A stretch of 64,000 bases of DNA, taken from the NCBI GenBank assembly GCA_043511425.1, contig CP121331.1, positions 1,529,983 through 1,593,982 on the forward strand. The letters run 5' to 3'. Below the pieces are notes generated by a model. It had not been told where the DNA came from. It saw nothing but the letters and a program-made list of their open reading frames with translations, and searched no databases. Position 1 is the stretch's first letter. Every line of letters starts with the position of its first letter. The DNA is from Sphingobacteriales bacterium (GTDB lineage: Bacteria; Bacteroidota; Bacteroidia; NS11-12g; UBA9320). Both the position numbers and the translations under genes were made by a program. Of this stretch, positions 2,991 to 64,000 are shown in pieces.

Positions 2991-3006
2991 TTCTTACTTT
3001 TGACTC

Positions 3007-4140: not shown

Positions 4141-4208
4141 TTCCGGCTAGTCCGCTTGGCAAGAAGTTATTTTAACGCATATATTTTAAAATGAGCTTGC
4201 TCCTAGCA

Positions 4209-5072: not shown

Positions 5073-5310
5073 TTTCTTAATATTTTTAAGTGTTAAAAAT
5101 AGTTCGGGTAAAAAAATAATTTGATTGGGGAGCAGCCGTCTCATCTCCAAAATCGGAGGATTAACTCAAGCACGCTCAATTTTAGAACGTACCAATTCCT
5201 CTAAATCGTAGGTATTGTTTTTAAAAATGTAGAATGTCACATTCCTCCAAAAAGGCTGAGACCTATTTAAACGCAGGTTTCGGTCTATGTATTCACGACT
5301 GTAGCACTCA

Positions 5311-10156: not shown

Positions 10157-11558
10157 TTGAAAAATAATTATTCAGACCTAATCGATCAAACGTTTAATTT
10201 CCCTACAGAGGAGTTTCACACCAATATGGAAGGTGAACTACAGTACCGAAACATTCCATTGATGGACCTCGCTAAAAAGTACGGAACACCCTTTAGATTC
10301 AGCTATTTACCTAAAATATCTGAGAATATTCAGAAAGCTAAGTTCTGGTTTGCAGATGCATTTGCTGAGCACAACTACAATGGCACCTACAATTATTGTT
10401 ACTGTACCAAAAGCTCACATTATAAGTATGTTATTAAAGAGGGACTTAAAAATGATATTCACTTAGAGACTTCCTCTGCTTTTGACCTGGACCTCATACT
10501 CAATCTTCATAACGACGGTTTATTGGGTAAGGAGCGGTTTATCATCTGCAATGGTTTTAAGACCGATTTATACATTGATAAAATCATAGAACTCATCGAC
10601 ATGGGTTTTGAAAACTTGCACGTAGTCTTAGACAATACCCGTGAGTTTCACCTCCTAAAAGGCCGTACAGAGAAAAAAATAAAACTAGGTATACGCATAG
10701 CTGCAGAGGAAGAACCTAAATTTGAGTTTTACACCTCTAGATTAGGAATAGGGTATAAATACATCGTTCCTTTTTACCAAGACCTGATAGCAGAAGAGCC
10801 TAATATGGAGCTAAAAATGCTTCACTTCTTTATCAACACAGGCATCAGAGACACGGCTTACTACTGGAATGAATTGCGTAAATGTCTGAATGTATATGCC
10901 AAACTAAAAGCGGTGTGTGACAGTGTAGACTCCCTCAATATCGGCGGTGGATTTCCCATCAAACGGAGCCTTAACTTTAGTTACGACTACGCCTATATGA
11001 TCAAGGAAATCGTGGGTCAAATCAAACAAGAGTGTACCGAAAAGAATGTGAGAGAACCTCATATTTTCACTGAGTTTGGCAGCTATCACGGTAGGAGAAA
11101 GTGGCGGCACCGTATATAAAATACTTCACCAAAAAAGACAAAACGACCGTGAACGTTGGGATATGATAGATGGTTCATTTATGACCACACTCCCTGATGC
11201 ATGGGCCATAAACGAACGTTTCATTCTCCTCCCACTCAATAAGTGGAACAAGAGCTATGAGCGTGTGCTCTTGGGTGGACTCACCTGTGACAGTGATGAC
11301 TACTACAATAGCGAGCAACACGTAAACGCAATCTATCTGCCTACTGTAGAAGATACCGATGAAGAGCCACTCTACATCGCTTTTTTCAATACAGGTGCAT
11401 ACCAAGAAAGTCTCAGTGGACAAGGAGGCATCAAACACTGCCTGATCCCTAGTCCGAAGAAGATTCTACTGTACAAAGATGAGCATGGCAATATAAAAGA
11501 TGAGCTATTTGCAGAGGAGCAAAATGTAGAGAGTATGATGAAAATACTCGGATACTAA
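10157..11558 (+). CDS. PLP-dependent (fold-III, ODC/DapDC family) arginine decarboxylase-like enzyme. There is an apparent +1 frameshift near 11085-11090, not at a homopolymer.
   Basis: ORFs 10157..11119 and 11076..11558 overlap and together give one ~465-aa protein. Motifs: NIGGGFPI, and TEFGSY followed by TVGESGGTVYKIL across the shift (the counterpart of EPGRAL.TAHH). The C-terminus is FFNTGAYQESL. Confidence 0.7.
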
Positions 11559-22084: not shown

Positions 22085-22207
22085 ATTTCTAAATTGAGGT
22101 GCAAAATTAGCGTTACCCGTGTGATATACTAATATGCAATACACTTATATAGTAAAACTGTCTCATTGTAAATCCAAGTAGCTATTTATCGTAAAAACTT
22201 CGTAGTA

Positions 22208-26374: not shown

Positions 26375-27070
26375 TTGGCAGAATATATCTCTATAAAAAA
26401 CTGGAGCGATGATGACAAACCGCGCGAGAAGCTAGCAGCCAATGGCCGTGAGACACTAAGTAATGCGGAACTACTCGGCATACTCCTGGGCAATGGCACA
26501 CGCAGTAAGTCTGCCGTGGACTTAGCCAGAGATATTCTAAACCTTGCTAAAAATGACCTCAATCAACTGGCGAAACTCAGTGTAAAAGACCTCTGCCAAA
26601 TAAGCGGCATCGGTCCGGCTAAGGCAATTACTATCATAGCTGCGATAGAGCTCGGTGGACGCAGAAAGAAGGCCGAAAGCACCTCGGAGTTTATACGCAG
26701 TAGCCACGACGTGTATGCTTACTTTAGACCACTCCTCCAAGACAAAGAGTATGAAGAATTTTGGGTGTTATTTCTAAACAGAGCTAATAAAATACTGAAA
26801 GGCTACAAAGCAAGTGACGGAGGCGTATCTCATACGGTAGCAGACCCTAAGCGGATATTTAAAGCAGCCTTAGAGCACAACGCTTCCAACCTAGTGCTCT
26901 GCCATAACCACCCCAGTGGGAATCTAAGCCCTAGTACTGCAGACCATCGTCTGACCAAGAAACTAATAGCTGCTGCAAAAAACCTAGACATGAGCATCAT
27001 AGACCATATCATAGTGACCGATGGAGGATACTATTCGTTTGCCGATGAGGGAGAGTTAGGAGGTGGGTAG
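26375..27070 (+). CDS. radC: RadC-family JAB/MPN domain protein (UPF0758).
   Basis: HhH N-terminus (LSNAELLGILLGNGTR) and the JAMM motif HNHPSGNLSPS. Confidence 0.9.
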   Translation: MAEYISIKNWSDDDKPREKLAANGRETLSNAELLGILLGNGTRSKSAVDLARDILNLAKNDLNQLAKLSVKDLCQISGIGPAKAITIIAAIELGGRRKKAESTSEFIRSSHDVYAYFRPLLQDKEYEEFWVLFLNRANKILKGYKASDGGVSHTVADPKRIFKAALEHNASNLVLCHNHPSGNLSPSTADHRLTKKLIAAAKNLDMSIIDHIIVTDGGYYSFADEGELGGG

Positions 27071-27130
27071 TTTGCTCTTGTGCAACAAATAACCTATTCT
27101 AGTGGTCTTAAAGTAAATCTAAAATAAATT

Positions 27131-29366: not shown

Positions 29367-29378
29367 CTCCTGCTGTTT

Positions 29379-32300
29379 ATGAAAAGGTTTTTCACTATAC
29401 TTTACTTGCTATTAGCATGCGTGGCTTGTTTTGCACAGCAAGGCGGTATTTTGCTTGGATCTAAATTTATTCTCCAATCAGACAATGACAGTTCATGGCT
29501 AGAATCGCTTTTGGTTGGTAACTTAGGTGGACAAAGTGATGGAATTCCACTTACCAATTGTTTTGGAGAAACGTTATTTACTGCTGGCTATATTCTAAAT
29601 AATCGAAATCTTCAGAAGCCAGTAAATCAATATGAGTTCTATGACACTGTTTACAGAAAAAGCTGTCCAAATTATAACAGATCAAGACTCTTATCATCTT
29701 ACTCCTCACCTTTTAAGTCAAATCATGCAAACTCTATACTCCTACATCAGAAAAATGGAGATTCAATCGAGTTTTCGTTTGGCACTTGGATGGTAAGTAA
29801 TGACAGTACGATATGGACCAGACTGGACTGCACTTCCCAGTTTATTGACACTATATACAATCCATATAGTTATAAGGGAATTGAGCTTATCACTCATCAG
29901 CAATTCGTCTGGAATATCATTATGCATAATGGTCACTTTCTCGCACTCAAGAGTAGTGACACAGGAATAGTAGATTACAATCGGACATTTAAAAACGGCA
30001 CAAATCAGAATAGATTCTCGAATGGTATATTTAGTCAATTAAAAGCTAATAATACAGGAGATCAATTGGTGGCTATAGAGGATGATGGCAACTCTGTCGT
30101 AAACCTCTACCAGTTTGATAAAGTTACCGGTGCCGTTTCATTCGATAAATCACTGCTTCAAAAATCACAGTTGCCGAGTTATAATTTTTGCACTGGCTAC
30201 TATGAATCTGTGCTGGACGGAATAGCCTTCTCACAAAACGACTCTATCATTTACATCGGCTACACCTACTACCCTATATGTAATGATTATACGAGACGAA
30301 TCCGAACGATTTACCAAATAGACCGATTTCATCCGAACCCTTCTAGCACCCTAAAAAACGTGTTTACAAAATACTATACCAACCTTGATGGTTCAGGTTT
30401 AAGAACTAGTTTAAGTTTATTTACGGCTCGTGACGGCATAATATATTGGGGAGAGGGTCGAGACTCAGCATTTCATACCATAGAGAATGCAAATGTTTAT
30501 GGCAGTACAATCAATTACTTCAATAGATATACAGACAAAGATCAGATAAACAACCTCGGTATATCCACTTACCCCAGCACCTACAAGTGGACTGCTTTTG
30601 ATGCCTTCAATGGCTGTAGTGATAGTATGGTGGCAGTATTTTACGGCTCAGAAAATCTGCTCCAAGTCACCTACTTATGGGGCGATGGAGACAGCACGGT
30701 GTATGATAGCGGCACCATAGTCAATGGAGATCAAAGTCTGCATGTCTATGATAGCAGTGGCACCTACACCATCACCCAGCGTGCCTTATACAATGACTGC
30801 GGCTATACCAAAACATCACGAAAAGTAGTGAATGTGACCGTGCCACCCAGTAGCTCAGATTACACACTTGAAGCAGATACTAGCTGCACACAGCACACCA
30901 TATCACTACTAGACACTGTAGAACATACAGAGATGGTATGCGTAGACTGGGGAGATAGTGTAAAAGATACCATACTTTTAATTACCAAAGGATTAAACCC
31001 CATCAGCATATCGCACACCTACACTACACCAGATACTTTTATGCTGAGTTACAAACTGGTAGGATATGGCATCCCCAGTGAAGGAGTAGTAGGCTGTACA
31101 CGAGTATTAGATACTAACTATGTAGCTGCTTTTCACCCTACACCACAGCCAGCCTACACGTGGAGTACTAACTATATAAAAGATACCCCACTCAGTGACA
31201 CCGCTATACTCTGCGTATATGAAGGACTTACACTCAGCCAGACGAGTGATAGCTTTAGCTACTTTACCAGTACCCCCTCAGTATCTATGGATACTTCACT
31301 AGCAGATAAAATAGCACTCCAGCTGCCTAGCGGCTGGCACCAGACTATCTTAACATCCTACACTAAACACGGGTGCCAAGTATTTGACACATTCACAGTA
31401 GGCATAGCGCCTCGCACTTCTGCCTTATGGAAGGGAGATACCAATGTATGTGAAAATACCCCCACCACGCATGGTGTCAATGTATTTACCTTTTTAGGCG
31501 CCATAGATAGCGTGATATCATCTACTCCTATCATCTATAAGTCTACTGACAGTCTGCTATTAGCCTTAAACGGCAGTACAGTGTCTGCATACACCATTAC
31601 CACGACAGCTTTTACAAATACAGGATGTATAGACACTTTTAAACGAACGATACACGTACGTCCACTACCGAGCATCTCACTAACAGGGGATAGTGCTGCT
31701 TGTATAAATGCTTCGGTACCTTATACTCCTATAGTGACATCTGTGGACAGTAGTATAATAAACTGGTATGTGGATGGCACAAGTAAGCAGACCTCACCAC
31801 TACTGCCACAAAATGAGCATATAGACTATTTTACCAGTAGCAGCTTCCCAGTTCGTATGGAGGTAGTAGGATTGGTATCCACTATGTACGGGTGTGTAGG
31901 TTCCGATACCGCATATACGGACGTATTTTCGCCTCCTGACATAGTACTAAGTGTTACAGATATCGCTGCTTGCTTAAACGAGCAGCCCATTTCACTTACG
32001 TCTAATACATTACTATACGAATCCACTGATATCCTACATGCGTGGGGTGACGGAAGATACTCTAGTACCGTAAGCACTACGGATACCGTGGAGCAACACC
32101 AGCACAGATACGACGTAGACGGAAGTTATACGTTTACGAGCATAGCTCAAGGACAAGTCTCCAACTGCACAGACACTAGTTATGCTACCATCACTATACA
32201 TGCACTACCCGAGGTAAGCATAAGTGGAGATGATGCCTGTGAAGGGGATCAAGGAAGCGTAGTAACTACCTGGAGGTCAGACACTACACTGTCCGTTATT

Positions 32301-32984
32301 CAAACCTTTGCAGATAATCTTTTACTGAATACCATTACACAGCCGAGTGAGCAAGGTACATCTGGGGTCTACTACCTCCCATCAGCCACTAACACCACTC
32401 TACTCAGCATAGTCAGAGATACTCTGGGATGCTCGGACAGTAGTGAAATAACCACACGAACTCTGACTAAGCCGCTGGCCAATTATACCGTATCATATGT
32501 TGGTGCTGATGAGTTTAAGGTGTCTTATCTATTTGAAGACAAATCTGTGAATCACACCTCTGCAGAATTATATTACGGGGACGGATTCAGCGATGGCCTT
32601 TCTCCTAGCTTCACTCAGGAGCATACCTATGCAGATACGGGTACTTTTTCATCCTACCTTATCGTCAGCAATGAAGGATTGTGTCTTGATACCGCATATC
32701 AGAATGTACTTGCCCAGCCTTTTGTAGATTTTTATATCCCTACGTCCATCACGCCCAATGCTGATGGACTAAACGATTATCTTAGTTTTAGTACTACCTT
32801 TATACAGTCTTTTCAGATAAATTTATATAACAGATGGGGCGAAAATGTAATGCGGATAGGTGACGTATCAGAGCTTGTAAAAACCAGTGATCTGCCCATA
32901 GGTGTATACGCAGTATCTTATGGTATCATAGATATTTTCAACAATAAACACTACGTTCATCAGACACTTACGGTCCTAAAATAG
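29379..32984 (+). CDS. Giant (1201 aa) secreted adhesin-like protein with a T9SS type-B / gliding-motility-associated C-terminal domain (CHU_C).
   Basis: Signal peptide, then many Thr/Ser-rich Ig/PKD-like repeats, then the C-terminal motif ITPNADGLNDYL...NRWGENV, characteristic of TIGR04131. Confidence 0.7.
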   Translation: MKRFFTILYLLLACVACFAQQGGILLGSKFILQSDNDSSWLESLLVGNLGGQSDGIPLTNCFGETLFTAGYILNNRNLQKPVNQYEFYDTVYRKSCPNYNRSRLLSSYSSPFKSNHANSILLHQKNGDSIEFSFGTWMVSNDSTIWTRLDCTSQFIDTIYNPYSYKGIELITHQQFVWNIIMHNGHFLALKSSDTGIVDYNRTFKNGTNQNRFSNGIFSQLKANNTGDQLVAIEDDGNSVVNLYQFDKVTGAVSFDKSLLQKSQLPSYNFCTGYYESVLDGIAFSQNDSIIYIGYTYYPICNDYTRRIRTIYQIDRFHPNPSSTLKNVFTKYYTNLDGSGLRTSLSLFTARDGIIYWGEGRDSAFHTIENANVYGSTINYFNRYTDKDQINNLGISTYPSTYKWTAFDAFNGCSDSMVAVFYGSENLLQVTYLWGDGDSTVYDSGTIVNGDQSLHVYDSSGTYTITQRALYNDCGYTKTSRKVVNVTVPPSSSDYTLEADTSCTQHTISLLDTVEHTEMVCVDWGDSVKDTILLITKGLNPISISHTYTTPDTFMLSYKLVGYGIPSEGVVGCTRVLDTNYVAAFHPTPQPAYTWSTNYIKDTPLSDTAILCVYEGLTLSQTSDSFSYFTSTPSVSMDTSLADKIALQLPSGWHQTILTSYTKHGCQVFDTFTVGIAPRTSALWKGDTNVCENTPTTHGVNVFTFLGAIDSVISSTPIIYKSTDSLLLALNGSTVSAYTITTTAFTNTGCIDTFKRTIHVRPLPSISLTGDSAACINASVPYTPIVTSVDSSIINWYVDGTSKQTSPLLPQNEHIDYFTSSSFPVRMEVVGLVSTMYGCVGSDTAYTDVFSPPDIVLSVTDIAACLNEQPISLTSNTLLYESTDILHAWGDGRYSSTVSTTDTVEQHQHRYDVDGSYTFTSIAQGQVSNCTDTSYATITIHALPEVSISGDDACEGDQGSVVTTWRSDTTLSVIQTFADNLLLNTITQPSEQGTSGVYYLPSATNTTLLSIVRDTLGCSDSSEITTRTLTKPLANYTVSYVGADEFKVSYLFEDKSVNHTSAELYYGDGFSDGLSPSFTQEHTYADTGTFSSYLIVSNEGLCLDTAYQNVLAQPFVDFYIPTSITPNADGLNDYLSFSTTFIQSFQINLYNRWGENVMRIGDVSELVKTSDLPIGVYAVSYGIIDIFNNKHYVHQTLTVLK

Positions 32985-37481: not shown

Positions 37482-38120
37482 ATGATAAATCCAGATTTTA
37501 AACTGAAAAATATTCCTGAGCGTACTGTAAAGCCAAGACAATCTGGCTTAACTATGGTAATGGACAAAGGATTAAGCTGCAGAGAAGTAGAAGATTTCTT
37601 AGAAGTATCCGCAGATAAAACTGATATCGTAAAGCTAGGCTTTGGTACGAGTACTGTTACTCCTAACTTAGATCGCAAAATAAAAATATATCAAGAAGCT
37701 AATATCCCCATTTACTTTGGAGGAACGCTTTTTGAAGCTTACGTAATTAGAGGTCAATTTGATGATTATAAAAAGCTACTGGACCGCTTTAATGTGAGTC
37801 ACGTAGAAGTCTCTGACGGAAGTATTGAAATATCGGAAGAAGAAAAGTGCGGCTACATCCGCTCACTCGCTAAAAACTTCACAGTGCTTAGCGAAGTCGG
37901 AAGTAAAGATGCCGAAAAGATCATACCACCGTACAAATGGATCGCTATGATGAAGGCAGAAATAGAAGCAGGTGCTTGGAAAGTAATCGCTGAAGCCAGA
38001 GAAAGCGGCACCGTAGGTATCTTTAGAAACTCCGGCGAAGTACGCTCAGGACTCATAGAGGAAATACTCCAACACATTCCACTAGAGACTATACTATGGG
38101 AAGCACCTCAAAAAGTATAG
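37482..38120 (+). CDS. (2R)-phospho-3-sulfolactate synthase (ComA) family protein.
   Basis: 212 aa with the ComA-family TIM-barrel signature regions (GLTMVMDKG, VKLGFGTS, YFGGTLFE). Confidence 0.65.
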   Translation: MINPDFKLKNIPERTVKPRQSGLTMVMDKGLSCREVEDFLEVSADKTDIVKLGFGTSTVTPNLDRKIKIYQEANIPIYFGGTLFEAYVIRGQFDDYKKLLDRFNVSHVEVSDGSIEISEEEKCGYIRSLAKNFTVLSEVGSKDAEKIIPPYKWIAMMKAEIEAGAWKVIAEARESGTVGIFRNSGEVRSGLIEEILQHIPLETILWEAPQKV

Positions 38121-38911: not shown

Positions 38912-39685
38912 CTAAGAATGGTGTCTATTTTTGATGTATTCAGATAACTTAGAATAGAGGCTGTGGAGCTCTTCATTATCTAGCATCTCTAAATGTTTAT
39001 CTATCACTGCATTATCGCCACGCATAGCTGGACCAGTCTGCCACATAGCAGGCTCACCTTTTTTTAACCTAAGCGCAGTCTCCTGTATAATCGGGAGTAA
39101 ATTATCAAACTCCAAGCCTTGCTTTACTAAATAGTCGCTTGCAATGGTATACATAGCGTTCGTGAAATTATTAGCAAACACGGCCGCTAAGTGATATTCC
39201 TTACGTTGAGTGGAGTTTACCTCCCTTACCCGATTACTGATAGAGTCTGCCAAGTCGTGTAGCTTAGACTTTACGCTATCGTTACTCCATTCTATAAATA
39301 ATGGCACCTCCAATATATCTTTCACCTCTTCCTTACGAAGACTTTGTAAAGGATAAAGCACACCATAATTGCTGGAGTATTTAGCCAATATATCCATCGA
39401 TACCGGCCCTGAGGTATGACATACTATTGCATTCATTCCTCCGGGGACATCTTCTAAAATTTCATAATACGATTCGTCACTGACACACAGAATTACAAAA
39501 TCCGAATCTTTGTACATCTCACTCGGTGTATCACCGTAGTATGCACCGAATTTGCTTGCTAGCTCTTTGGCATTAGCTACATTTCTACTAATCACCTGAT
39601 TGATACTGTGCCCTGCCTTGTCCAGTGCGTGTGCTAAATTAGTGGCTACATTTCCACTTCCTATGAAGGTAATCTTAAACCGCAT
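38912..39685 (-). CDS. Rossmann-fold NAD(P)-binding protein, DUF2520 / F420-dependent-oxidoreductase-like.
   Basis: N-terminal ITFIGSGNVATNLAHAL dinucleotide-binding motif. 257 aa. Confidence 0.55.
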   Translation of the reverse strand: MRFKITFIGSGNVATNLAHALDKAGHSINQVISRNVANAKELASKFGAYYGDTPSEMYKDSDFVILCVSDESYYEILEDVPGGMNAIVCHTSGPVSMDILAKYSSNYGVLYPLQSLRKEEVKDILEVPLFIEWSNDSVKSKLHDLADSISNRVREVNSTQRKEYHLAAVFANNFTNAMYTIASDYLVKQGLEFDNLLPIIQETALRLKKGEPAMWQTGPAMRGDNAVIDKHLEMLDNEELHSLYSKLSEYIKNRHHS

Positions 39686-42191
39686 TTTTGCGAAGCTCTA
39701 GTCGATTCCAAGTAGCTATTCCAAAACCAACGACCATCATCACGGTACCTAGCCATAAGAAGTTAATGTACGGAAATACAATCGCCTTCATCACGATAAA
39801 TTTAGGTTGAGGAGTCGTTTCTGCAATTTCCAGCACGGCTGTAGGACTCCCGTTTTCGGAGGGTCTCACTTCAAACCCGAAACGCAATCCTGCTTCAGCT
39901 ACTTCTTCTCGTATACTAAAGTACGTATTGGCGTTAATCCCAAAAATAGGATTTGCTTCCAGCATGGTTTTCCCTCTTTTTATCTTGAGATTAGCCTTTG
40001 CCAGCGTCGTATTCTTCAGTCCAATGCTTTTGCCATCTCCTTGCTCCACTCCTGTAAAGTAAACCACGCCATTTGCAGTAATGATACTGTCTCCTTTCTC
40101 TATCGTAAATTCTTTTACGTTTTGCCATGAGATACTATCATCATTCGGCTTAGGCAGCGAAGTGATGTGTGTGTACACATCATAGGTAAGGTAATGACGC
40201 GTATCTGGGTTAGGCAGTATTCCTCCCATGTCCTCATTGATCTGGGTGTTTGGCAAAAGTGTAAACTCTTCTAATCCATCGATAGACTTATAGTTCACCT
40301 TAAAGTAGATATCCTCTCCACTCGCACTATCTCCTTGATACGTTACCTGAAAATCTCCTAGTCGAGTAGGCTCGTCCTTGATAAGAAGCATATTTTCTCT
40401 ACGCGCTTTCTCATCAAAATTACCCATCTGACCACTGAAGTCTGCAGTAATGACCTGCTTCTTTGCACTACTCACTAACACACCGAGAAGCATCATACCA
40501 AATCCAATATGTGCTATGGATGATCCACTGAGTTTAAACTTTCGCACACTCAGTAGTATGTAAGCCAAGTGACCTACCATCGCAAAAATACCGGCAAGCA
40601 TTAGTATTACGTGCATTGGATTCGTAATCCCAAAAAGGAAAATCCCTCCCATTGTCAAGACTACCGCTATCGCCGCAGTAATTAGTATTTCTTTTGACAG
40701 TTTGGACTTATCCGGTGTACTTCGGTACCTAAAAAACTGTGAGACAGCCATAAGAATTGCTATCACTATAGCAATAGGCATCTGGTACATGTTGTAATAT
40801 CCAATTACATCCTCAGGCGGCACTAAATTAGTGCCAAAAATCTTATTAAACACTGGCTTAGAGGTGCCCACAAGCACTTGCACGGCGCTCAGGACTAGCA
40901 TCAATGAACCTATAAACATCCAAAACTCTCGACCCGTAATATTGTCTTCACTCGCCTTATTGGTGATGTTTTTATTTAGATTAAATACGAACCAAGCTAG
41001 GCCTACAATACTGAGAATCAGTAATGGATAAAAACTTAACTTGGTATAGAATGGCAGAAGCAGTACTAAAATACTTACAGGTATAATGATATACCACCGC
41101 TTTCGAGCACCTTCTGTCACTGCTATGATAGGCAGCCAGATAAAGAGAACCACGAACTGCATGAGTTGCCCGGCTAAACCTAAGTCAGTAAATGCGTGTA
41201 CTGACGTATCTCCCAACACTCCACTTCTCGTCAAGAAACTCGCATAGAGCACCATGATAAAGGTAGAGATAACCAAGGTATACGACGCTATTGTAGAACT
41301 ATTGGTTACTTTCTTAATGAGCATAAGGTGTATACCGCTAATGAGCAATAACCACGGAACAAGTGAAGCATTTTCCACCGGATCCCACGCCCAATAGCCA
41401 CCAAAACTAAGTGACTCATACGCCCAGAAACCACCCATAATAATTCCAGCACCGAGTATCATACCTCCGGCTAAGGCCCAAGGCAATGCTGGTTTTATCC
41501 AAGCTCTGTATTCTTTTTGAAAGAGCGAAGTAACCGCAAATGCAAATGGCACTATAGTCAATGCAAAGCCTAAGAATAATGTAGGTGGATGTATGACCAT
41601 CCAGTAGTTTTGAAGCAATGGGTTTAATCCTGTTCCGTCTACTATATTTTCAAGATAGTTAGGCGAACTGAATATAGGGGCCTGCATCTTATCCCTCAGC
41701 AGCTCAAACGGGCTACTTCCTAAGGTGTAGATATCTAAAATATTGATACCCAAAAGCATCGCAGTTAGGACCACCTGTGCCAGCGCCATGATAGCAAGTA
41801 CGCCTCGCTCCCATCTTTTAGCCGTAAAAATAAGGATAACACCTAGCAGTGCATTCCACACCATCCAGAGTAAAAAACTTCCTTCTTGCCCTTCCCAGAA
41901 ACATGATATCATATACCTAAGTGCAAGCGTCTTACTGCTGTGTTCGTAGGCATAAGCATACTCAAAGTAATGCTGCTGTATAATGACAAATAGGGTCACG
42001 AATATGCCGAGAACCGCTATGGTGTGAATACCATAAAACAGTCTTCCAATACTTACATCTGTACCCTTATCTGCTGAGGACTTAGCATAAAAAACAGCAC
42101 TTAAAAGTGCTGCCACAAAAGATAAGACTACAAAAAAGTGTCCTAAGTTACCGATGAAGAGATTCTCTCCTACGTAGGTTATTGTTTCCAT
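39675..42191 (-). CDS. ccmF: Cytochrome c-type biogenesis protein CcmF (heme lyase subunit) with an extended C-terminus.
   Basis: WWD domain GGYWAWDPVENASLVPWL, conserved His residues, about 15 TM helices, 838 aa. Confidence 0.85.
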   Translation of the reverse strand: METITYVGENLFIGNLGHFFVVLSFVAALLSAVFYAKSSADKGTDVSIGRLFYGIHTIAVLGIFVTLFVIIQQHYFEYAYAYEHSSKTLALRYMISCFWEGQEGSFLLWMVWNALLGVILIFTAKRWERGVLAIMALAQVVLTAMLLGINILDIYTLGSSPFELLRDKMQAPIFSSPNYLENIVDGTGLNPLLQNYWMVIHPPTLFLGFALTIVPFAFAVTSLFQKEYRAWIKPALPWALAGGMILGAGIIMGGFWAYESLSFGGYWAWDPVENASLVPWLLLISGIHLMLIKKVTNSSTIASYTLVISTFIMVLYASFLTRSGVLGDTSVHAFTDLGLAGQLMQFVVLFIWLPIIAVTEGARKRWYIIIPVSILVLLLPFYTKLSFYPLLILSIVGLAWFVFNLNKNITNKASEDNITGREFWMFIGSLMLVLSAVQVLVGTSKPVFNKIFGTNLVPPEDVIGYYNMYQMPIAIVIAILMAVSQFFRYRSTPDKSKLSKEILITAAIAVVLTMGGIFLFGITNPMHVILMLAGIFAMVGHLAYILLSVRKFKLSGSSIAHIGFGMMLLGVLVSSAKKQVITADFSGQMGNFDEKARRENMLLIKDEPTRLGDFQVTYQGDSASGEDIYFKVNYKSIDGLEEFTLLPNTQINEDMGGILPNPDTRHYLTYDVYTHITSLPKPNDDSISWQNVKEFTIEKGDSIITANGVVYFTGVEQGDGKSIGLKNTTLAKANLKIKRGKTMLEANPIFGINANTYFSIREEVAEAGLRFGFEVRPSENGSPTAVLEIAETTPQPKFIVMKAIVFPYINFLWLGTVMMVVGFGIATWNRLELRKNAV

Positions 42192-42197
42192 TGCTTA

Positions 42198-42602
42198 TTA
42201 GCTTCTTGATGCTTGAGCTGCTCGTTGCGTTTCTTCGTCCTTATACTTTGATGGACACTTAGGTATCACCTTAGTAGCTCTGAATATATCTCCATCCACG
42301 TGTCCATACATATTTACGGTCTCTGCCCTTTCAAAATCCTGTTGCTTTGGTTCTGTAGAGACTACTTTTCGAATTTCACCTTCTTTATCTTTCAGATAAA
42401 AAGAGAAATAGTTCGCGTCTTTCACAGGATCGTACTCCATAGGCATATCCTTAGCTAGGAATCCCGTAATGTGATACGTATCTCCAGGATTAGCAGCAGC
42501 TTCTGTGAATGTAGAACTCTTCTCTGCTCCGCTGTACGTACTCATGATACCTGCTATGGCTATCGCTAGTAGGACTAATAATATGATTGCTTTAGGCTTC
42601 AT
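42198..42602 (-). CDS. ccmE: Heme chaperone CcmE, CxxxY-type variant.
   Basis: N-terminal TM anchor, OB-fold region, and a C-terminal KVIPKCPSKYKDEE in which CxxxY replaces the canonical HxxxY heme-binding motif. Confidence 0.7.
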   Translation of the reverse strand: MKPKAIILLVLLAIAIAGIMSTYSGAEKSSTFTEAAANPGDTYHITGFLAKDMPMEYDPVKDANYFSFYLKDKEGEIRKVVSTEPKQQDFERAETVNMYGHVDGDIFRATKVIPKCPSKYKDEETQRAAQASRS

Positions 42603-42792
42603 TTCTATCTTTTTCTAACTTAGTTATCTTCTTATCTAATCTTACTAAATACAACGTAATAAGACTGAAAATGATTACTAGAACGGCAATAACAACGTAA
42701 ATTTTTCCACTTTGATAAAAGAAGTCATCTACCGGCGTCTGTGCAAGAGCACGGTATCCTAGTAAAAGTATAATCCAACTATATTTCCTCAT
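42592..42792 (-). CDS. Small single-TM protein, CcmD-like. It is translationally coupled, overlapping both neighbours.
   Basis: 66 aa, one TM helix, position between ccmC and ccmE. Confidence 0.4.
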   Translation of the reverse strand: MRKYSWIILLLGYRALAQTPVDDFFYQSGKIYVVIAVLVIIFSLITLYLVRLDKKITKLEKDRNEA

Positions 42793-43447
42793 CTTTTCTT
42801 TTTAGTTCTGTTAATCTGTATTTGAGCGTGGCTATCCATACTCCTAATAGTATCCAACCTATGCCTGCCAAGTAAAACACCTTGCGCAAGTTATTGTCTA
42901 AATCTAAACTACTGAAAGCTATCGTATCTCCACTGGCCGGATGCAGACTCGTCTCTGCCATACGCGGATATATAATGATAAGCACAATGTAGATGGGAAA
43001 GGCAAAAAGATTATACACCGCAGAGAATTTTCCTCGTTGATTTTCGTCTTCTATGCTATTCCTCAGGATGTAATATGCAATGTAGATGAGCATTCCAATG
43101 GCTGCTCCATTGAGCTTCGCATCTTCTATCCACCATGTACCCCACGTAAATCTAGCCCAAAATGAACCTGTAGCTAATCCCATCAACCCAAATAGCATAC
43201 TGACTTTTACAAAGCTACTACTCAAGCTGTCGTGCTGAAGGTCTCCAGAACTTAAAAACTTAATACCGTATATGTAGGATACGACTAAGAGTATAATCAT
43301 ACTAAACCACATAGGCACGTGAAAATGCAGGTTGCGTATGGTTTTGGCAAGAATACCTATATCATCTGGAGCAGGCATCAGTAGACCACCTATGATAGCA
43401 TAGATAATGCACACTACCGCGAGTATTTTCCACCAGGATTTTCTCAT
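42779..43447 (-). CDS. ccmC: Heme exporter protein CcmC.
   Basis: WWD motif RFTWGTWWIEDAKLN, 6 TM helices. The annotated start is placed at MRKSWWKILAVV. Confidence 0.85.
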   Translation of the reverse strand: MRKSWWKILAVVCIIYAIIGGLLMPAPDDIGILAKTIRNLHFHVPMWFSMIILLVVSYIYGIKFLSSGDLQHDSLSSSFVKVSMLFGLMGLATGSFWARFTWGTWWIEDAKLNGAAIGMLIYIAYYILRNSIEDENQRGKFSAVYNLFAFPIYIVLIIIYPRMAETSLHPASGDTIAFSSLDLDNNLRKVFYLAGIGWILLGVWIATLKYRLTELKRKDEEI

Positions 43448-43627
43448 TTTTTTTCTTCTTAGCAAAGGTAGTTTTTTATACCTTATGAGAAATGAGCTTA
43501 CACAGAATTTTGAATGATTCGAGATAATGTCACCAAAGCTACTAACAGTAAAAATGCCGTTATTGAAACAACGGGACACTCTATTCTCGATGCAAGCTGA
43601 CTGGCAAAAGGTGAGTTTTAAAATTAG

Positions 43628-49100: not shown

Positions 49101-49172
49101 GGGTTAGATTTGGTTGAAGCATTCCTCGTCGGAGAATAGCTTTTCTCATTGGATACTAAGCTTAATAAGCAT

Positions 49173-49904
49173 TTATTTTTTTAGGTTATATCCAAAGGTA
49201 AGTTCTATAAATGATGCCTTTTCAGACACAGTGAAAGCTGAGATATTATTGCTAAAAGCTACATCTGACTCAGCACTATCATAGTGTGCCAAATTCCAAA
49301 ACTTAGGAGAATAGATGTACTGAAGGCCCAGTTTCCAGCGATCAACATTTATAACATAACGAGCGCCTACATTTACACCACCATTAAGCCTATTTAAGCC
49401 TTCTTGTCGATGCATATAGCCTAGAGGGTCATTCTTATCATTACTTATCTCTAAGTCTGTGTTTTCTGTAGCTAGTACGTAATCTCCGTGCAAGCCTATG
49501 ACAGCTTCTAGAGAAGTCTTATTTTGTTGAAATAATTTAAGGTTTACATTAGTATTTAGTCCTACATAAGGCACATCATACGTGTTCTTTTCTAAATCCC
49601 ACTGATAAGATGGATTACTCTCCATTCGCTCGTTAATGGCTAGCTTACCACCACTCTGATAGTATGATACAGATGAGGATAGGGACCACTTTTCTTTCTC
49701 AAAGTACTCCATCCCTAGCGAAACACTAATATCAGACTTTGGAATTTGATAATAATTCATCCCAAACGTAGCACGTGCAAATTGATCTTGCTTCATTCGC
49801 CACGTGGTAATGGAGCGGACCACACCTGTAGAGAAGGTGATAGTCTGTGCGAAGCCTATGAACACTGCACTTGTAAAAAGCAGCGCTGTTAATATTCTTT
49901 TCAT
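49173..49904 (-). CDS. Outer-membrane beta-barrel protein (small porin/PagL-like), paralog 1.
   Basis: Signal peptide, about 8 amphipathic strands, aromatic-rich C-terminus. About 30% identity to the upstream paralog. Confidence 0.45.
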   Translation of the reverse strand: MKRILTALLFTSAVFIGFAQTITFSTGVVRSITTWRMKQDQFARATFGMNYYQIPKSDISVSLGMEYFEKEKWSLSSSVSYYQSGGKLAINERMESNPSYQWDLEKNTYDVPYVGLNTNVNLKLFQQNKTSLEAVIGLHGDYVLATENTDLEISNDKNDPLGYMHRQEGLNRLNGGVNVGARYVINVDRWKLGLQYIYSPKFWNLAHYDSAESDVAFSNNISAFTVSEKASFIELTFGYNLKK

Positions 49905-50668
49905 TTGTTCCCTTTTAAATTAAATCCGACACCGATGGTCAGAAATGACACTTTTTCTCGTACTGTAAAGCCATTCAATCTATCAGTACCTACGTCATCT
50001 ATTTCCGCTTCATACTTCCCCATTTTCAATAAACGTGGGGCATACGTATAATTGAGTGAATATGACCACCTATTGGTTGTATAAATGACTCTTCCACCTA
50101 GATTATAGCCTATATTAAGCTTTCTAAGTGCTCCATATTTAGTGAAGAATTCTAATGGATCACCACTTGGCCGATTATGGTTATAATCGACTTCTATATC
50201 AGACTCATAAAGTATTCGATCTATATGTAGTCCTGCTACTGTCATTAACTTTACGTTACCAGCTCGCCATAGCTCCATGTTATAGTTCGTATTAAGCGAC
50301 CAAGAGTTATAGGTATACTCATTATCCTCCAGATCTAGTAAAAAAAAAGGGTTCTGACCAAGGACATTATACTCTTCTTGGGTAGCACCACTCTGGTAGA
50401 AAGCAAAACTGCTGTAGAAGGATGACTTAGGCTTAATAGCATATTCTACCCCTATTTCTCCTGCCCACCCTCTCTTGGGGGTGAATAGTAAATGATTACC
50501 ACTCTCACGTAAAGTACTCGTTCTAAATGGGGTGGAGGTTTGGGTTTGGCCGAGGTTTATATGGACAGTTTGAGCACATACCATATGTGACCAGGCTGAT
50601 GCCAAGACAAAAAAGAACGACAACCAGACCCTCTTGATATTGAAAATTTTATATCCTGTATTTCTCAT
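49901..50668 (-). CDS. Outer-membrane beta-barrel protein, paralog 2. It overlaps paralog 1 by 4 nt.
   Basis: Same architecture, with shared motifs (YQSGATQ / YQSGGKL; GFTVREK / AFTVSEK). Confidence 0.45.
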   Translation of the reverse strand: MRNTGYKIFNIKRVWLSFFFVLASAWSHMVCAQTVHINLGQTQTSTPFRTSTLRESGNHLLFTPKRGWAGEIGVEYAIKPKSSFYSSFAFYQSGATQEEYNVLGQNPFFLLDLEDNEYTYNSWSLNTNYNMELWRAGNVKLMTVAGLHIDRILYESDIEVDYNHNRPSGDPLEFFTKYGALRKLNIGYNLGGRVIYTTNRWSYSLNYTYAPRLLKMGKYEAEIDDVGTDRLNGFTVREKVSFLTIGVGFNLKGNK

Positions 50669-50697
50669 TAATTATTCTGCTAATTCCAAACTCATAA

Positions 50698-51093
50698 TTA
50701 CATCAATCCTTCTCCCATAAACGGTAAAATAAAAATTGAGGCAATTAAAAGCAGTACATATACTATCAATATACCATAACCTCTCCATTTTTCCATTTTC
50801 CCCATTTCAATACTTAGAACATCTTTTTCTTTAAAATATACATTAATCAAAATAACTGTCAGTACATAAACTGCCATAATAAACAGTGCTATTCGAAATT
50901 CTGATAATATAAAGAATTTTGCACCATAAGGTAGATATTCCGCTAAATCAAATATGAAGCCAAAAACAAATATATGCATCATAAGAATGACCACTAAAGA
51001 ATTAACTGCCCAAGAATATGCAGGTCGATTTCGACCTATACCATTATAACATTCGTACATTAGAAATAGATATGTTAAAATTATTCTTCTCAA
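50698..51093 (-). CDS. Small 4-TM membrane protein.
   Basis: Hydrophobic ORF only. Confidence 0.3.
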   Translation of the reverse strand: MRRIILTYLFLMYECYNGIGRNRPAYSWAVNSLVVILMMHIFVFGFIFDLAEYLPYGAKFFILSEFRIALFIMAVYVLTVILINVYFKEKDVLSIEMGKMEKWRGYGILIVYVLLLIASIFILPFMGEGLM

Positions 51094-51260
51094 TTCAGTT
51101 TTTCTGTTTTCAGAGCAATACGCCCCAGTGGTTTAGATTAGGATAACATGGCTCAGTATTCACTACAAATTCCGCTGCATTTCTTGGCGTACGGTTTTCC
51201 TAATTTCATAGCCACTCACTTTAAGCTTCGGTGCCCACCGTCACCGCAGAGAATTCCTTC

Positions 51261-58110: not shown

Positions 58111-59631
58111 CTACCTTCTTCTTCCTCCAGAACTGCTTCTGCTTGGAGTTGCCGAGCGAGATGGACTGCTACTGCGGCTTGGGCTAGCACTTCTGCTCGG
58201 AGAGCTACTTCTACTGGGGGTTGTAGCTCTTGGCGTGCTACTTCTGCTTGGTGTCGTTGCTCGTGGAGTACTACTTCTGCTTGGAGGAGTATACGACCTG
58301 CTCGGCGTGCTGCTTCTACTTGGCGTTGTTGCTCTTGGCGTAGTGCTTCTGCTAGGGGTCGTTGCCCGTGGAGTACTACTTCTGGTAGGAGGAGTATACG
58401 ACCTGCTCGGAGTGCTGCTTCTACTTGGCGTTGTTGCTCTTGGCGTGTTGCTTCTGCTCGGTGTCGTTGCTCGTGGAGTACTACTTCTGGTAGGAGGAGT
58501 ATACGACCTGCTCGGTGTGCTGCTTCTACTAGGTGTTGTAGCTCTTGGCGTGCTACTTCTGCTCGGTGTCGTTGCTCGTGGAGTTGTAGTTTCATTAGAG
58601 CGAGTAGTCCCCCCAGTTGAATTGGTACCAACGTTACCTCGAGTACCTTCGCCTCTCACCGTCCCGCTATTACCTCTAGTATTGCCTATTGGCTCTGATA
58701 CGTTTGAAGGTCTTCGCGAAGGAGTAACAACTCTTGCATCTCCAACTCCTCCAGAACCTACTTCCTCAGTAGTACCTCCTCGAGTAGTTACCTCCGTTCG
58801 TTGACCTCCTAGTCTACGTGTATTCACACTTCCACTTTGAGAGGTGGAAGTATTACCCCCTACTCGCTGCCTTGGGCTATTTGCTGCTCTATTATATCTA
58901 TCCGATCCTGAGTAGCCTAAACCTCTATTCCCGTTTCCTCCATTATTGGACGAGAATACCCCTCTATTTCCGTTCCAGCCATTGTTCCAGCCGTGATTAT
59001 TGTATCCATTCCCCCATCTGTTCCCGGAGTAGTACCCGCCGTTATTCCAACCTCCATAGTATGGATTACCACAGTAGCCTCTACCATACCAGCCATTATT
59101 CCATGGATTTCCATACCAGCCACCTGCGTATGGATTCCCCCAAGAATATCCACCGTACCAACCATTCCAGCTGTTGTACCCAAAGCTCCATCCTCCGCGT
59201 GGTCTGGTCCAATAGTTATTGCCATACCAGCCACCAGTATATGGATTTCCCCAAGATTACCCGCCGTACCAACCATTGTTCCAGCTATTGTTCCATCGAT
59301 TATCTTGATTGGCATCTTGATATCCCGCGGCATAGCCATTTTCATAGGAATACTCAAATTCTTCCCCTCTAAATCTACGGATTCTTCTTTCGTAATCCGT
59401 TTCATCTACATCAGCGTAGTCTTCTGTCGGGATAGCCTCTTGATTTTCTGATAAGCGCACAGGCTCTTGCGGTGTATATTTTTCAGGAGCTGGTTGTGGT
59501 ACTTTTTGTACAACGATAATGTCATCTTCTGGAGTATAATAGACATCATCCATAGCGGTGTTGGTCATCCTAGTGCTGGTGCAGCTTGCTAGGAAAATAG
59601 TGGCGAGAGTGAGATACGTGTATAATTTCAT
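58111..59631 (-). CDS. Low-complexity lipoprotein: signal/lipobox, then an acidic region, then a W/G/Y/N-rich repeat region, then an S/T/P/R-rich region with 3 tandem 35-aa repeats, ending GGRRR. The single frame is interrupted by one TAA at 59257-59259.
   Basis: ORFs 59257..59631 and 58111..58827 are in the same frame with no other stop between them. The stop is a TAT-to-TAA difference relative to the neighbouring repeat copy ([14 protein letters not shown] versus [13 protein letters not shown]). Confidence 0.55.
58215..58600. repeat. In-frame tandem repeat, 105 bp x about 3.5 copies (anchors at 58253, 58358, 58463 and 58568), encoding [35 protein letters not shown].
   Basis: Exact 105-bp periodicity of GTCGTTGC and GAGTATACGACCTGCTCGG in the sequence. 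Confidence 0.85.
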
Positions 59632-59661: not shown

Positions 59662-59669
59662 TTAATTTT
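59662..59669 (+). promoter_or_regulatory. -7 box TAATTTTG (TAnnTTTG) upstream of proS.
   Basis: Consensus match, 44 nt upstream of the ATG at 59713. Confidence 0.3.
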
Positions 59670-59712: not shown

Positions 59713-61133
59713 ATGGCATTCGAAAAAGTAACTCGCGAACAAGATTACTCCAAGTGGTACAACAACCTAGTAGAAAATGCAGACTTAGCTCAGCACAGTA
59801 GCGTGCGAGGCTGTATGGTGATAAAACCCTACGGATATGCTATTTGGGAGAAAATGCAGGCTGAACTAGACCGTAGATTTAAAGAAACGGGACACGAAAA
59901 CGCGTACTTCCCTCTTTTTGTCCCTAAAAGTCTCTTTGAAGCCGAAGAAAAAAATGCAGAAGGTTTTGCCAAAGAATGTGCTGTTGTCACACACTATAGA
60001 TTAGAGACCGACCCAGACAAACCGGGTAAACTGAGAGTAGACCCTAATGCAAAGCTAGAAGAAGAACTTATCGTACGACCTACGAGTGAGGCTATCATAT
60101 GGAATACCTACAAAGGATGGATACAGAGCTACAGAGACCTTCCTCTTTTGATCAATCAATGGGCTAACGTAGTTCGATGGGAGATGCGTACGCGATTATT
60201 TTTGCGAACAGCTGAGTTTTTGTGGCAAGAAGGACATACCGCTCACGCTACCAAAACGGAAGCAGAAGCAGAAACCGATCAGATGGTACGTGTATATGAA
60301 GAATTTTCTAGGAATATACTTGCCATACCAACGATTATGGGACACAAAACGGAGAGTGAACGTTTTGCAGGAGCAGAAGACACATTGTGTATTGAGGGTC
60401 TCATGCAAGATGGGAAAGCACTCCAAATGGGAACTTCTCACTTCTTAGGTCAAAACTTCGCTAAAGCTTTTGATGTGAAATTTGCGACTAAAGAGGGAAA
60501 ACTAGAACACGTATGGGCAACTAGCTGGGGCGTGAGTACGCGCCTCATGGGAGCACTCATTATGGCTCACTCAGATGATGAGGGACTGGTACTTCCTCCA
60601 AATCTGGCACCAATACAAGTAGTAATAGTGCCTATTTACAAAGGATTAGACCAGCTAGAGGCTATTAGTGAGAAGATAGATCCTATCATTAAAAATCTAA
60701 GAGCAAAAGGGATCAGCGTAAAGTTTGACACGCGAGATACGCACAAGCCAGGGTTTAAATTTGCTGAGTGGGAACTCAAAGGAGTCCCTGTACGAATAGC
60801 TATTGGGAATAGAGATCTAGAAGCTGGCACAAAAAAAAAATAGAAAATCTACTCGCAGTGATGCAAGACCACATTTACATGAAAGCCTTAAACTTTAGAG
60901 ACAACCATACTACATTAGTCAATACGTGGGAGGAGTTTCAAGAAGTGCTAGAAGGTAAAGGAGGCTTTATCTCTGCACACTGGGACGGTACCGCAGAGAC
61001 TGAAGAAAAAATACAACAAGCGACGAAGGCAACTATCCGGTGTATTCCTTTTGACAACCCACAGGAAGCCGGTAAATGTATCTTCTCTGGCAAGCCAAGT
61101 AAAGAAAGAGTGCTGTTTGCGAAGGCGTACTAG
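59713..61133 (+). CDS. proS: Proline--tRNA ligase (archaeal/eukaryote-like type, common in Bacteroidetes). The reading frame is broken at an A10 run (60831-60840).
   Basis: N-terminus [19 protein letters not shown], class II motifs, and C-terminus ...KATIRCIPF...[13 protein letters not shown]. ORFs 59668..60843 and 60858..61133 join as ...[16 protein letters not shown]... if the run is A11. Confidence 0.85.
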
Positions 61134-61196
61134 TCTTTGTCATCCTGAGCGGAGTCGAAGGGTGCACAAAGAGTTGAATGAGTTAAACAGTTATTA

Positions 61197-61829
61197 GTGG
61201 AAACGGAAGAGAAAAAAGAATCTAAACGCTATTCAAAATGGGGATTAGCATTTCTTATCCCTGCAGTTATTAGTGTAATTGGAGGCCTCTGGATAGCACT
61301 ACGTATTCCTGAATATAGTGGTGAAGGAGGGACGACTACAATGAGTATCCCTTTCAGGTATATTTTTACACTTTGGCTATTCTTATTTTTACTTTTTATC
61401 TATGCTCAGATTAAAGATTCTTCACTTTTTCAATTGCAGTGGCCAAAAAACTCTAAGATTGCGAGCATTTTAGGGTCTATTCTTACTATTCCTACATTTT
61501 CACTACTTTTTTCATTCGCAATTGTACACGCAATTTTTAGTGTAATTAATTATACTGGCGTAAAAGAGGAAGTAGTTATAGAAGGTCAGCTCTATAAAAA
61601 GGAAATCATAGAAAAAAGAAGACGAAGAAGTATTAAAAAAACCAAAAAGTACTACGCTTATTTTAATGAGAATAAAGAATATTGCTTTGAAATTTCGGAA
61701 TCTTCTTTTCACCTATTTAATGAAGGTGATGTATTAAAACTTAATGTTCTGAAAGGTCGATTAAACGGATTTTACATTACTGGTGATTCATTTACATATA
61801 TAAGATCGATAAATAATGCTATTGATTAA
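61197..61829 (+). CDS. Hypothetical membrane protein (3-4 TM) with a Lys/Arg-rich segment.
   Basis: Hydrophobic profile only. Confidence 0.3.
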   Translation: METEEKKESKRYSKWGLAFLIPAVISVIGGLWIALRIPEYSGEGGTTTMSIPFRYIFTLWLFLFLLFIYAQIKDSSLFQLQWPKNSKIASILGSILTIPTFSLLFSFAIVHAIFSVINYTGVKEEVVIEGQLYKKEIIEKRRRRSIKKTKKYYAYFNENKEYCFEISESSFHLFNEGDVLKLNVLKGRLNGFYITGDSFTYIRSINNAID

Positions 61830-61875
61830 ACTAGGTTTTAAATTTGGCTTTTATCCTCACTCCTCCCACACATAC

Positions 61876-62523
61876 TTAAACAGCACAACAGCTAGTATCA
61901 GCTGCATAACAAGAAGAAGAACTAAGACCCCCCCAGTCTTGCACATAGTTTAGATTATCTAAAGGAGAAAGCGCTTTGCTCGCCGACTTCAAACTTACCA
62001 AGAGACTTGGAATCAGCAACGGAAGACTTAGAATCATAGCAACCAAGCTACTGTTTTTGGCGCCTAAAGCCAAGGCAGAATTAAACGTAAACACAGCGGA
62101 ATTACACAATGTGAAGAGTAATCCTGTAATCATATACTCCCAAAAGTGCGGGATGCTTTGGGGCAACCAAAAAGACATTAATGCAGTAAGCACTACTAAG
62201 AAAAAAGCATTCACCAAAAACTGGTAAAGTATCTTGGACACGATAATGGCTCGGCTATCTACTAAGAATTTGTAATAGAGTAAACTGCCTTTATTTTCCA
62301 TCAAAAAACTCCGTCCTATGTTTTGCACTACGCCAAAGATGAGGACCACATAAAACAGGCTGTGCCACACGTGATTACTCGCTTCTTTCTGTATGGTATA
62401 GATAATGAAGACCGAGACTACAAGCAATAAGACCAAAGACCATAGAGCATACTTATTCTTCAGCTCCATTTTGAGCTCTTTTAGAAAAAGTTGTTTTATC
62501 TGCTTAATAAGTACAGTTTGCAT
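61876..62523 (-). CDS. CcmB-like heme exporter ABC permease (tentative).
   Basis: 6-TM ~215-aa protein with RSFLMENKGSLLYY and SLPLLIPSLLV resembling CcmB conserved segments. No adjacent ccmA. Confidence 0.4.
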   Translation of the reverse strand: MQTVLIKQIKQLFLKELKMELKNKYALWSLVLLLVVSVFIIYTIQKEASNHVWHSLFYVVLIFGVVQNIGRSFLMENKGSLLYYKFLVDSRAIIVSKILYQFLVNAFFLVVLTALMSFWLPQSIPHFWEYMITGLLFTLCNSAVFTFNSALALGAKNSSLVAMILSLPLLIPSLLVSLKSASKALSPLDNLNYVQDWGGLSSSSCYAADTSCCAV

Positions 62524-62550
62524 AAATTTGCCATCGCAAAAGTACATTTA

Positions 62551-63009
62551 ATGTTATACCAATTACAGAACTTATCCGCAGAAGAGCAAACGCTTGTACA
62601 GAGATCACCAATCTGGGTAACGCTACTCATAGCGTGCGCGGACTACGATATCAAGGAAGAAGAGATAGACAGAGCCAAAGAAATCATACACATCAAATCG
62701 TTTGCAGTGCAAAACGATGTCAAGAATTTATATAAAAACTTGGATGAGCATGTGGATGAGGAAATAGATTTCGCATTGAAGTCGCTATCTGCCGACGGTG
62801 CAGAGCGTATGTTATTTTTGGAGCAGCATATTGCCAAGCTGAACGACATATTTCCTAAACTGGATCATACGTATGCTAAACAACTATACAATAGCCTCGT
62901 GAGCTTAGCTACTTCTGTAGCTAGAGCGGAAGGAGGTCTTTTCGGTATACGTAAAATAGGCCAGGACGAGGCTAAGTACATTCACCTACCAATGCTCCAA
63001 AAACCTTGA
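62551..63009 (+). CDS. Hypothetical protein.
   Basis: ORF only. The annotated start is placed at MLYQLQNL. Confidence 0.3.
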   Translation: MLYQLQNLSAEEQTLVQRSPIWVTLLIACADYDIKEEEIDRAKEIIHIKSFAVQNDVKNLYKNLDEHVDEEIDFALKSLSADGAERMLFLEQHIAKLNDIFPKLDHTYAKQLYNSLVSLATSVARAEGGLFGIRKIGQDEAKYIHLPMLQKP

Positions 63010-64000
63010 AAAAAATCTTAATAGCAAACCGTGGCGAAATCGCCGTACGAGTGATAAAGACCTGCCGAAAGATGGGTATCTCCACAGTGGCTATTTACTC
63101 GGAAGCAGACCGAGACTCTAAGCATGTGCAGCTCGCTGATGAAGCTTTCTGTGTAGGGCCAGCAGCCAGTTCGGAGAGTTATCTGCAAGCGGAAAAAATC
63201 ATCCAAATCTGCAAAGACAATGCCGTGGATGGCATACATCCTGGATACGGCTTCTTGTCTGAAAATGCAGGCTTTGTTAAAAAAGTAACGGATGCAGGTA
63301 TCACTTTTATAGGTCCTAGCCCAGAAGCCATAGATCTAATGGGCAGTAAAATTGCGAGTAAGCAGGCCGTAGAAAAATACGGTGTACCCTTAGTTCCAGG
63401 CATTAACCATGCGGTAGAAGATATCGCAGAAGCAGCAGATGTAGCTGATCAGATAGGCTACCCCGTGCTTGTAAAAGCAAGTGCTGGTGGTGGTGGAAAG
63501 GGAATGCGTATAGTGCATAAACCCGAAGACCTAGAAAGCCAGATGAGAACTGCTCAAAGTGAAGCTCAAAGTGCTTTTGGTGATCGATCTGTATTTATAG
63601 AAAAATTTGTAACCAAGCCTCGCCATATTGAGATACAGCTGATAGCAGATAATCACGGTAGCGTTATTTACCTGCTCGAGCGAGAGTGTTCTATCCAGCG
63701 TAGACACCAGAAACTAGTAGAAGAAGCACCTAGCGCTGTCCTTACAGATGCACTGAGAAAAGAGATGGGAGAAGCTGCGGTAAACGTAGCTAAAGCGTGC
63801 AATTATTCTGGAGCAGGAACGGTAGAATTCTTGTTGGATGCGGACCACAAGTTTTATTTCCTAGAAATGAACACACGTTTGCAAGTAGAACATCCGGTAA
63901 CCGAGCTTATCACTGGACTAGACCTGGTAGCTGAGCAAATAAAAGTAGCTCGAGGAGAAAAACTGGACTACGTACAGGAAGACATCAAAGCTCATGGACA
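63006..64000 (+). CDS. accC: Biotin carboxylase (acetyl-CoA carboxylase subunit or biotin-dependent carboxylase alpha), 3'-truncated by the window edge. Putative TTG start.
   Basis: KKILIANRGEIAVRVIKTCRKMGI..., ATP-grasp motifs (KASAGGGGKGMRIV, EMNTRLQVEHPVTE). Confidence 0.88.
   Translation, partial: MKKILIANRGEIAVRVIKTCRKMGISTVAIYSEADRDSKHVQLADEAFCVGPAASSESYLQAEKIIQICKDNAVDGIHPGYGFLSENAGFVKKVTDAGITFIGPSPEAIDLMGSKIASKQAVEKYGVPLVPGINHAVEDIAEAADVADQIGYPVLVKASAGGGGKGMRIVHKPEDLESQMRTAQSEAQSAFGDRSVFIEKFVTKPRHIEIQLIADNHGSVIYLLERECSIQRRHQKLVEEAPSAVLTDALRKEMGEAAVNVAKACNYSGAGTVEFLLDADHKFYFLEMNTRLQVEHPVTELITGLDLVAEQIKVARGEKLDYVQEDIKAHG

Follow-up and report, generated by a model that had tools for sequence, protein, structure and literature searches.

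The window, the whole 64,000-nt stretch of DNA analysed here, carries a gene (proS) for prolyl-tRNA synthetase (ProRS), which in this group is an essential enzyme, normally encoded by one gene copy. The gene is present as two open reading frames (ORFs), of which the first starts at 59668 (TTG) or 59713 (ATG) and ends at 60843 with the C-terminus ...EAGTKKK before its stop codon, while the second, one frame back, spans 60858..61133 and has its own GTG/ATG start at 60858/60861. Both were confirmed as real ProRS ORFs by the ORF list and the Pfam domains, and the sequence bore out the location predicted for an A10 tract between them (60831-60840), which is the longest homopolymer of the window (Table 1). 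A run of this length is not statistically unusual, since shuffled sequences gave 0.74 such runs per window, with at least one in 44 of 100 shuffles. The first ORF contains the class II catalytic core (PF00587, tRNA-synt_2b, E = 7.9e-20, residues 114-283), and its HGTP anticodon-binding domain is incomplete, with the Pfam match ending at profile position 68 of 94; the C-terminal ProRS-C_1 domain is present, but in a separate ORF and in the -1 frame rather than within a single ORF of ~492 codons. For comparison, the intact allele of the same species (P0001, 492 aa) matched its closest solved structure, 1H4Q, over residues 7-492 (E = 1.2e-155).

According to the original prediction, a complete ProRS is encoded by the two ORFs, which would join perfectly once the A10 run is read as A11. 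One added A does fuse the frames, but the product is not full-length: it comprises 473 aa and lacks the end of the anticodon-binding domain, whereas the full-length proteins among the best 120 of 8,000 scored homologues, all of which are ProRS, have 492 aa (with one exception of 507 aa that has an upstream start). Protein and DNA alignments agreed that the join is not perfect and that 58 nt (19 codons + 1 nt) are missing. In the nearest proteins, which are 98% identical elsewhere, the place of the window's junction reads ...EAGT-VEVARRDTKEKHSYELTDIENK-LENLL..., and at the DNA level the window was found without the 58 nt when compared with seven same-species contigs (97-99.9% identical). The segment is present in six ENA metagenome contigs of the same species, which are ~97% identical to the window and gap-free over 1,870 nt upstream, and the same-strain Logan contig L088 has the 58 nt (GGTAGAAGTTGCACGTAGAGACACTAAAGAGAAGCACTCTTATGAGCTAACCGATATA) followed by GAAAACAAAA at the place of the window's A10. 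After the 58 nt this contig reads GAAAACAAAATAG, for which the window counterpart is AAAAAAAAAATAG, and on the downstream side of the junction the two share 99.9% identity. The A10 run originates from two substitutions in GAAAACAAAA, G->A and C->A, and the lesion in proS is a 58-nt deletion plus these two substitutions, not a 1-base length change of a pre-existing homopolymer. A separate difference between L088 and the window was observed within proS at 60177-60235, where 11 mismatches fall within ~60 nt and none elsewhere in the 948 nt, which suggests either a short recombination tract or that L088 is a strain-chimeric short-read contig.

The protein segment lost with the deletion is VEVARRDTKEKHSYELTDIE. 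Among 30 homologues (83-93% identical to P0001), nine of its residues are invariant, namely V374, E375, V376, A377, R378, R379, D380, K382 and K384 (VEVARRD-K-K), and T373, T381, E383 and D391 are nearly invariant. In an AlphaFold model of the intact protein, the lost residues form strands 373-378 and 384-388 together with the first turn of helix 392-417 (pLDDT 83-88 there); the model is poor overall (mean pLDDT 45), and only residues ~300-410 (pLDDT 78-90) were used. As modelled, the deleted segment is the last beta-hairpin of the anticodon-binding domain.

Table 1. Parts of the interrupted proS gene and sites of the other gene-breaking lesions in the window
Feature	Position	Strand	Description	Basis
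proS 5' part	59713..60830	+	codons 1-373: class II catalytic core and first ~70% of anticodon-binding domain	Pfam tRNA-synt_2b, HGTP_anticodon (profile 1-68 of 94); 98% identical to 492-aa P0001 and P0002
A10 run, deletion junction	60831..60840	+		DNA alignments
proS 3' part	60841..61133	+	-1 frame; remaining linker helix and C-terminal ProRS-C_1	Pfam ProRS-C_1, E = 3.9e-27; alignment to 492-aa homologues
PLP-dependent decarboxylase	11087..11090	+	+1 nt with adjacent substitution, TATACCGTAGG -> TATCACGGTAGG	
Transglutaminase-like gene	13517	-	GGA->TGA, codon 6	
SDF-family symporter	19450	-	+1 nt, CACCCCAAA -> CACCCACAAA; frameshift at codon ~51	
ComA-family (phosphosulfolactate synthase) gene	38118..38120	+	CAG->TAG nonsense	
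Repeat-rich lipoprotein gene	59257..59259	-	in-frame TAA for TAC (Tyr), codon 125	
ccmB (61876..62547)	61928..61934	-	C7 (coding-strand G7); C6 in nine related contigs	

The proS site and variable segments in relatives

Neither the frameshift nor an A-run of at least 9 nt was found at the proS site in any of 7 same-species contigs examined at the DNA level, all seven of which have an open frame and an interrupted run, A4CA4 or A4CA3T. The same was true of other Bacteroidota (species 64-76% identical, among the matches listed), where none of 80 proS genes showed the frameshift or a long A-run, every frame being open and the longest A-runs measuring 4-8 nt. A metagenome scan with a flank pattern common to both proS alleles returned one contig, which was already known. 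By exact-sequence look-up in a public collection, the truncated 391-aa ProRS occurred in one NCBI contig only (2,871,272 nt), as a cluster of one, and the 212-aa product of the ComA-family gene (see below) occurred in the same single contig only, so that these lesions are properties of that deposited single-contig genome. A separate look-up of contigs encoding the truncated first ORF, or either of two large proteins of the window, gave no match. No second ProRS was detected within the window, and no other ProRS from the same record appeared among the best 120 of 8,000 scored homologues. The gene for another aminoacyl-tRNA synthetase, GlyRS, lies at 20552-22144 and appears intact.

Several other segments of the window differ from relatives or are otherwise distinctive. 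An array of an 87-nt tandem unit (3355-4132; ~7-9 copies, 86-92% matches, with TRF also reporting periods of 173 and 260) gives rise to spurious overlapping ORFs on both strands, and its plus-strand unit has a moderate fold (-30.1 kcal/mol, z = -2.1); the 2.5 kb around it (2734-5304) are represented by ~210 nt in the relative L100, and Rfam gave no match anywhere in the window, the array included. A 5.9-kb island at 27063-32976 is missing from six same-species contigs, in which RadC adjoins peptidase M1; its genes for 722- and 1201-aa proteins with type IX secretion C-terminal sorting domains (Por_Secre_tail, CHU_C) make it look like a strain-variable surface-protein island. A 2.1-kb segment (49147-51260), also missing from same-species contigs, holds three minus-strand genes (243, 255 and 131 aa), one with an outer-membrane beta-barrel domain and the others without a Pfam match, and the window's only A9 run (50340-50348) lies inside it.

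Other gene-breaking lesions and the quality of the record

We compared ~45 kb of the window with 40-odd same-species loci from independent assemblies (96-98% identical) and found, beyond proS, at least six more private gene-breaking lesions, comprising three +1 insertions and three nonsense changes (Table 1). The relatives are intact at all six sites, and with proS included there are seven lesions in seven genes. The PLP-dependent decarboxylase is divided into ORFs of 320 and 160 aa (431-443 aa in relatives), the SDF-family symporter has 450 aa compared with 477-480 aa in relatives, its extra base being missing from nine distinct contigs, and the ComA-family protein has 212 aa compared with 254 aa. 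At the site of the ComA nonsense codon, CAG was present in 11 of 11 loci examined, with the 50-nt context otherwise identical (the same-strain contig L113 ends 390 nt short of this codon). In the transglutaminase-like gene an ATG directly follows the TGA at codon 6, and the consequence of this change is uncertain. The C7 run of ccmB leaves the last 23 codons of that gene frameshifted. Other genes of cytochrome c maturation (CcmC-like, CcmD_alt, CcmE and CcmF) are clustered at ~39.7-43.6 kb (38912-43579), 18 kb away from ccmB, which adjoins proS.

The lipoprotein gene (~58111..59631, minus strand) lies directly upstream of proS and encodes G/W/N/Y-rich and S/T/P/R-rich repeats. Compared with other strains, the gene varies in repeat copy number by multiples of 33 nt and has an in-frame insertion of 39 nt at 58922-58960; these differences look like natural repeat polymorphism, separate from the TAA stop. 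Private gene-breaking lesions seem to occur in the record at roughly one per 6-7 kb, a density at which pseudogene counts would come out too high and orthologue sets would be disrupted.

The private substitutions of the record, counted over 34 kb of coding sequence, comprised 444 synonymous and 100 non-synonymous changes (the latter mostly conservative) and 1 stop, with 79% falling at codon position 3 and 25 changes at position 2. The ratio of 444 to 100 points to a lineage that has evolved under normal purifying selection, and a decaying or symbiont genome was ruled out on these counts. The same data indicate that errors from random substitution are few. The homopolymers of the window were concordant with relatives at 101 of 103 runs, which ruled out generic homopolymer error as a general explanation.

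The nearest proxy for reads was provided by same-strain Logan contigs from runs ERR7460762, ERR7460764 and ERR7460769, which carry intact alleles; a literature search on these three runs gave no match. Between 60832 and 64000, these short-read contigs depart from the window at the lesions alone. L087 and L089 matched the window at all of 2,844 and 1,310 aligned positions, respectively, the C7 indel being the sole difference in each case, and L088 differed over 60832-62614 only by the C->A change in the A-run and by the C7 indel. L113 showed 1 mismatch in 1,960 nt. Natural divergence is expected to produce many neutral changes for each inactivating one, and none accompany the lesions over 60832-64000, which favours a consensus or assembly error.

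Interpretation of the interrupted gene

Taken together, these comparisons make it probable that the split proS and the other lesions are defects of a single 2.87-Mb contig record and not a biological recoding site, and we infer that their cause is a consensus or assembly error. Only this record has the proS allele in its broken form, the gene being intact in independent assemblies of the same strain and species, and the six further private gene-breaking differences come without signs of relaxed selection. An error in the assembly had been one of the two options originally proposed, in the form of a 1-nt homopolymer error. That form does not fit the 58-nt deletion with its two substitutions, nor the agreement of 101/103 homopolymers with relatives, but an assembly error of another kind is still favoured because the proS allele is found in this record alone and is accompanied by at least six other private gene-breaking lesions. 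The record has lost 58 nt of proS, and two base changes in it turn the interrupted A-rich GAAAACAAAA into A10; the organism itself most probably has an ordinary 492-aa ProRS of the archaeal/eukaryote-like class IIa type, as in every other assembly of the species. Our guess for the source is a long-read-derived consensus, unpolished or of low coverage, on the grounds that the contig is closed, that each of the three 1-nt indels in coding sequence adds a base and that two of the lesions are complex, combining an indel with substitutions next to it. A classic homopolymer-prone chemistry is not the explanation, given the accuracy of the homopolymers. This accuracy speaks against error, as do two further features: a 58-nt deletion is an unusual consensus error, and three nonsense substitutions exceed what random error would predict from the few private position-2 changes and the near absence of same-strain mismatches.

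It is less likely, though still a substantial possibility, that some or all of the lesions are instead genuine, the sequenced clone or molecules carrying a null proS as one of several inactivating mutations of very recent origin. In that case the cell would rely on a second ProRS elsewhere in the 2.87-Mb genome, or the consensus would have caught defective minority variants. This account gains from the accuracy of the homopolymers and from the near-identity to same-strain contigs outside the lesions, as well as from the three clean nonsense substitutions, which are atypical of random sequencing error, and several of the affected genes (surface lipoprotein, symporter, ComA, decarboxylase) could be dispensable. 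However, proS and ccmB serve core functions, and the searches of the window and of the best 120 of 8,000 homologues yielded no second ProRS from this record. Seven inactivating changes with essentially no neutral change relative to same-strain contigs are unlike mutation accumulation, the private substitutions bear the mark of strong purifying selection, and none of the lesions is present in any other assembly compared. Even if the lesions were genuine, this copy of proS would be a null allele, not a slippage-rescued gene.

Rescue of a genuine allele was the other option originally proposed, and functional rescue by slippage is very unlikely. Such a rescue would proceed through RNA-polymerase slippage (A11) or through -1 ribosomal frameshifting on A_AAA_AAA and would have to yield a working 473-aa ProRS, an outcome to which we attach scarcely any probability. 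The A10 run is longer than the ~9 A/T at which bacterial RNA polymerase is reported to slip, and Buchnera and Blochmannia slippage cases are listed in the same review (PMC5009743); poly(A) slippage is also reported to rescue the interrupted Citrobacter rodentium tssM (PMC4256274). If the DNA is as written, slippage of the polymerase, which occurs at runs of 9 A/T, should produce some A11 transcripts, yet these would still encode the 19-residue-deleted protein, in which nine invariant residues are lost along with two strands of the anticodon-binding domain, and no full-length protein would be restored by the change of one nucleotide. Nor is the site conserved, as the frameshift and the A-run are kept in 0/7 same-species contigs and in 0/80 Bacteroidota proS genes among the matches listed. 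With regard to the ribosomal route, A_AAA_AAA does lie in the zero frame (within ACA AAA AAA AAA TAG) and fits the X_XXY_YYZ slippery pattern, but no downstream stimulatory structure was found in 60841-60930, where the minimum free energy of -7.5 kcal/mol (z = +0.88) was equalled or bettered by 162 of 200 shuffles. None of the neighbouring private lesions, moreover, lies at a slippery site or can be rescued in the same way. The complete chain, in which the deletion and the A10 run sit in the organism's only proS and the 473-aa ProRS made by transcriptional or ribosomal -1 slippage works although its anticodon-binding domain has lost the last beta-hairpin, is more far-fetched still.

Split aminoacyl-tRNA synthetases are known in other lineages, and the second ORF has a start codon of its own, but a naturally split ProRS, with a 376-aa catalytic piece and a 91-aa C-terminal piece made separately and assembling, is the least credible reading of all, because the split occurs in this record alone and at the very place where invariant residues are lost, and every other member of the species or clade compared has a single ORF.

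Returning to the defect of a single record, this proS is best regarded as a defective or pseudogene call in a single assembly and not as a recoding candidate. The significance of the case lies mainly in quality control, with nothing novel in it: a seemingly perfect join across a homopolymer needs a check against homologue length before slippage is invoked. If the lesions were true, the interest would lie in how the strain tolerates a null proS, a case that nothing here supports.

Comparison with known systems

In known cases of poly(A) slippage, a correction of +/-1 nt restores the full conserved protein, and the Blochmannia tracts are maintained across related genomes. The window resembles these systems (Buchnera/Blochmannia and C. 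rodentium tssM) in having at least 9 A where the proS frame is lost, but differs in that the correction leaves a 19-residue hole and in that the tract and the frameshift are absent from relatives. It also resembles long-read (meta)genome assemblies with errors, in that several private 1-nt indels and split genes occur in one closed contig; frame-shift correction in long-read metagenomic chromosomes is the subject of PMC6469205. It departs from such assemblies in that its homopolymers are mostly correct and in its three nonsense substitutions and one 58-nt deletion. Compared with the ProRS of Thermus thermophilus (1H4Q/1HC7 type), the window copy has an anticodon-binding domain whose end is 19 residues short and a C-terminal domain that is out of frame, whereas the intact allele of the species shares the same three-domain layout of tRNA-synt_2b, HGTP_anticodon and ProRS-C_1.
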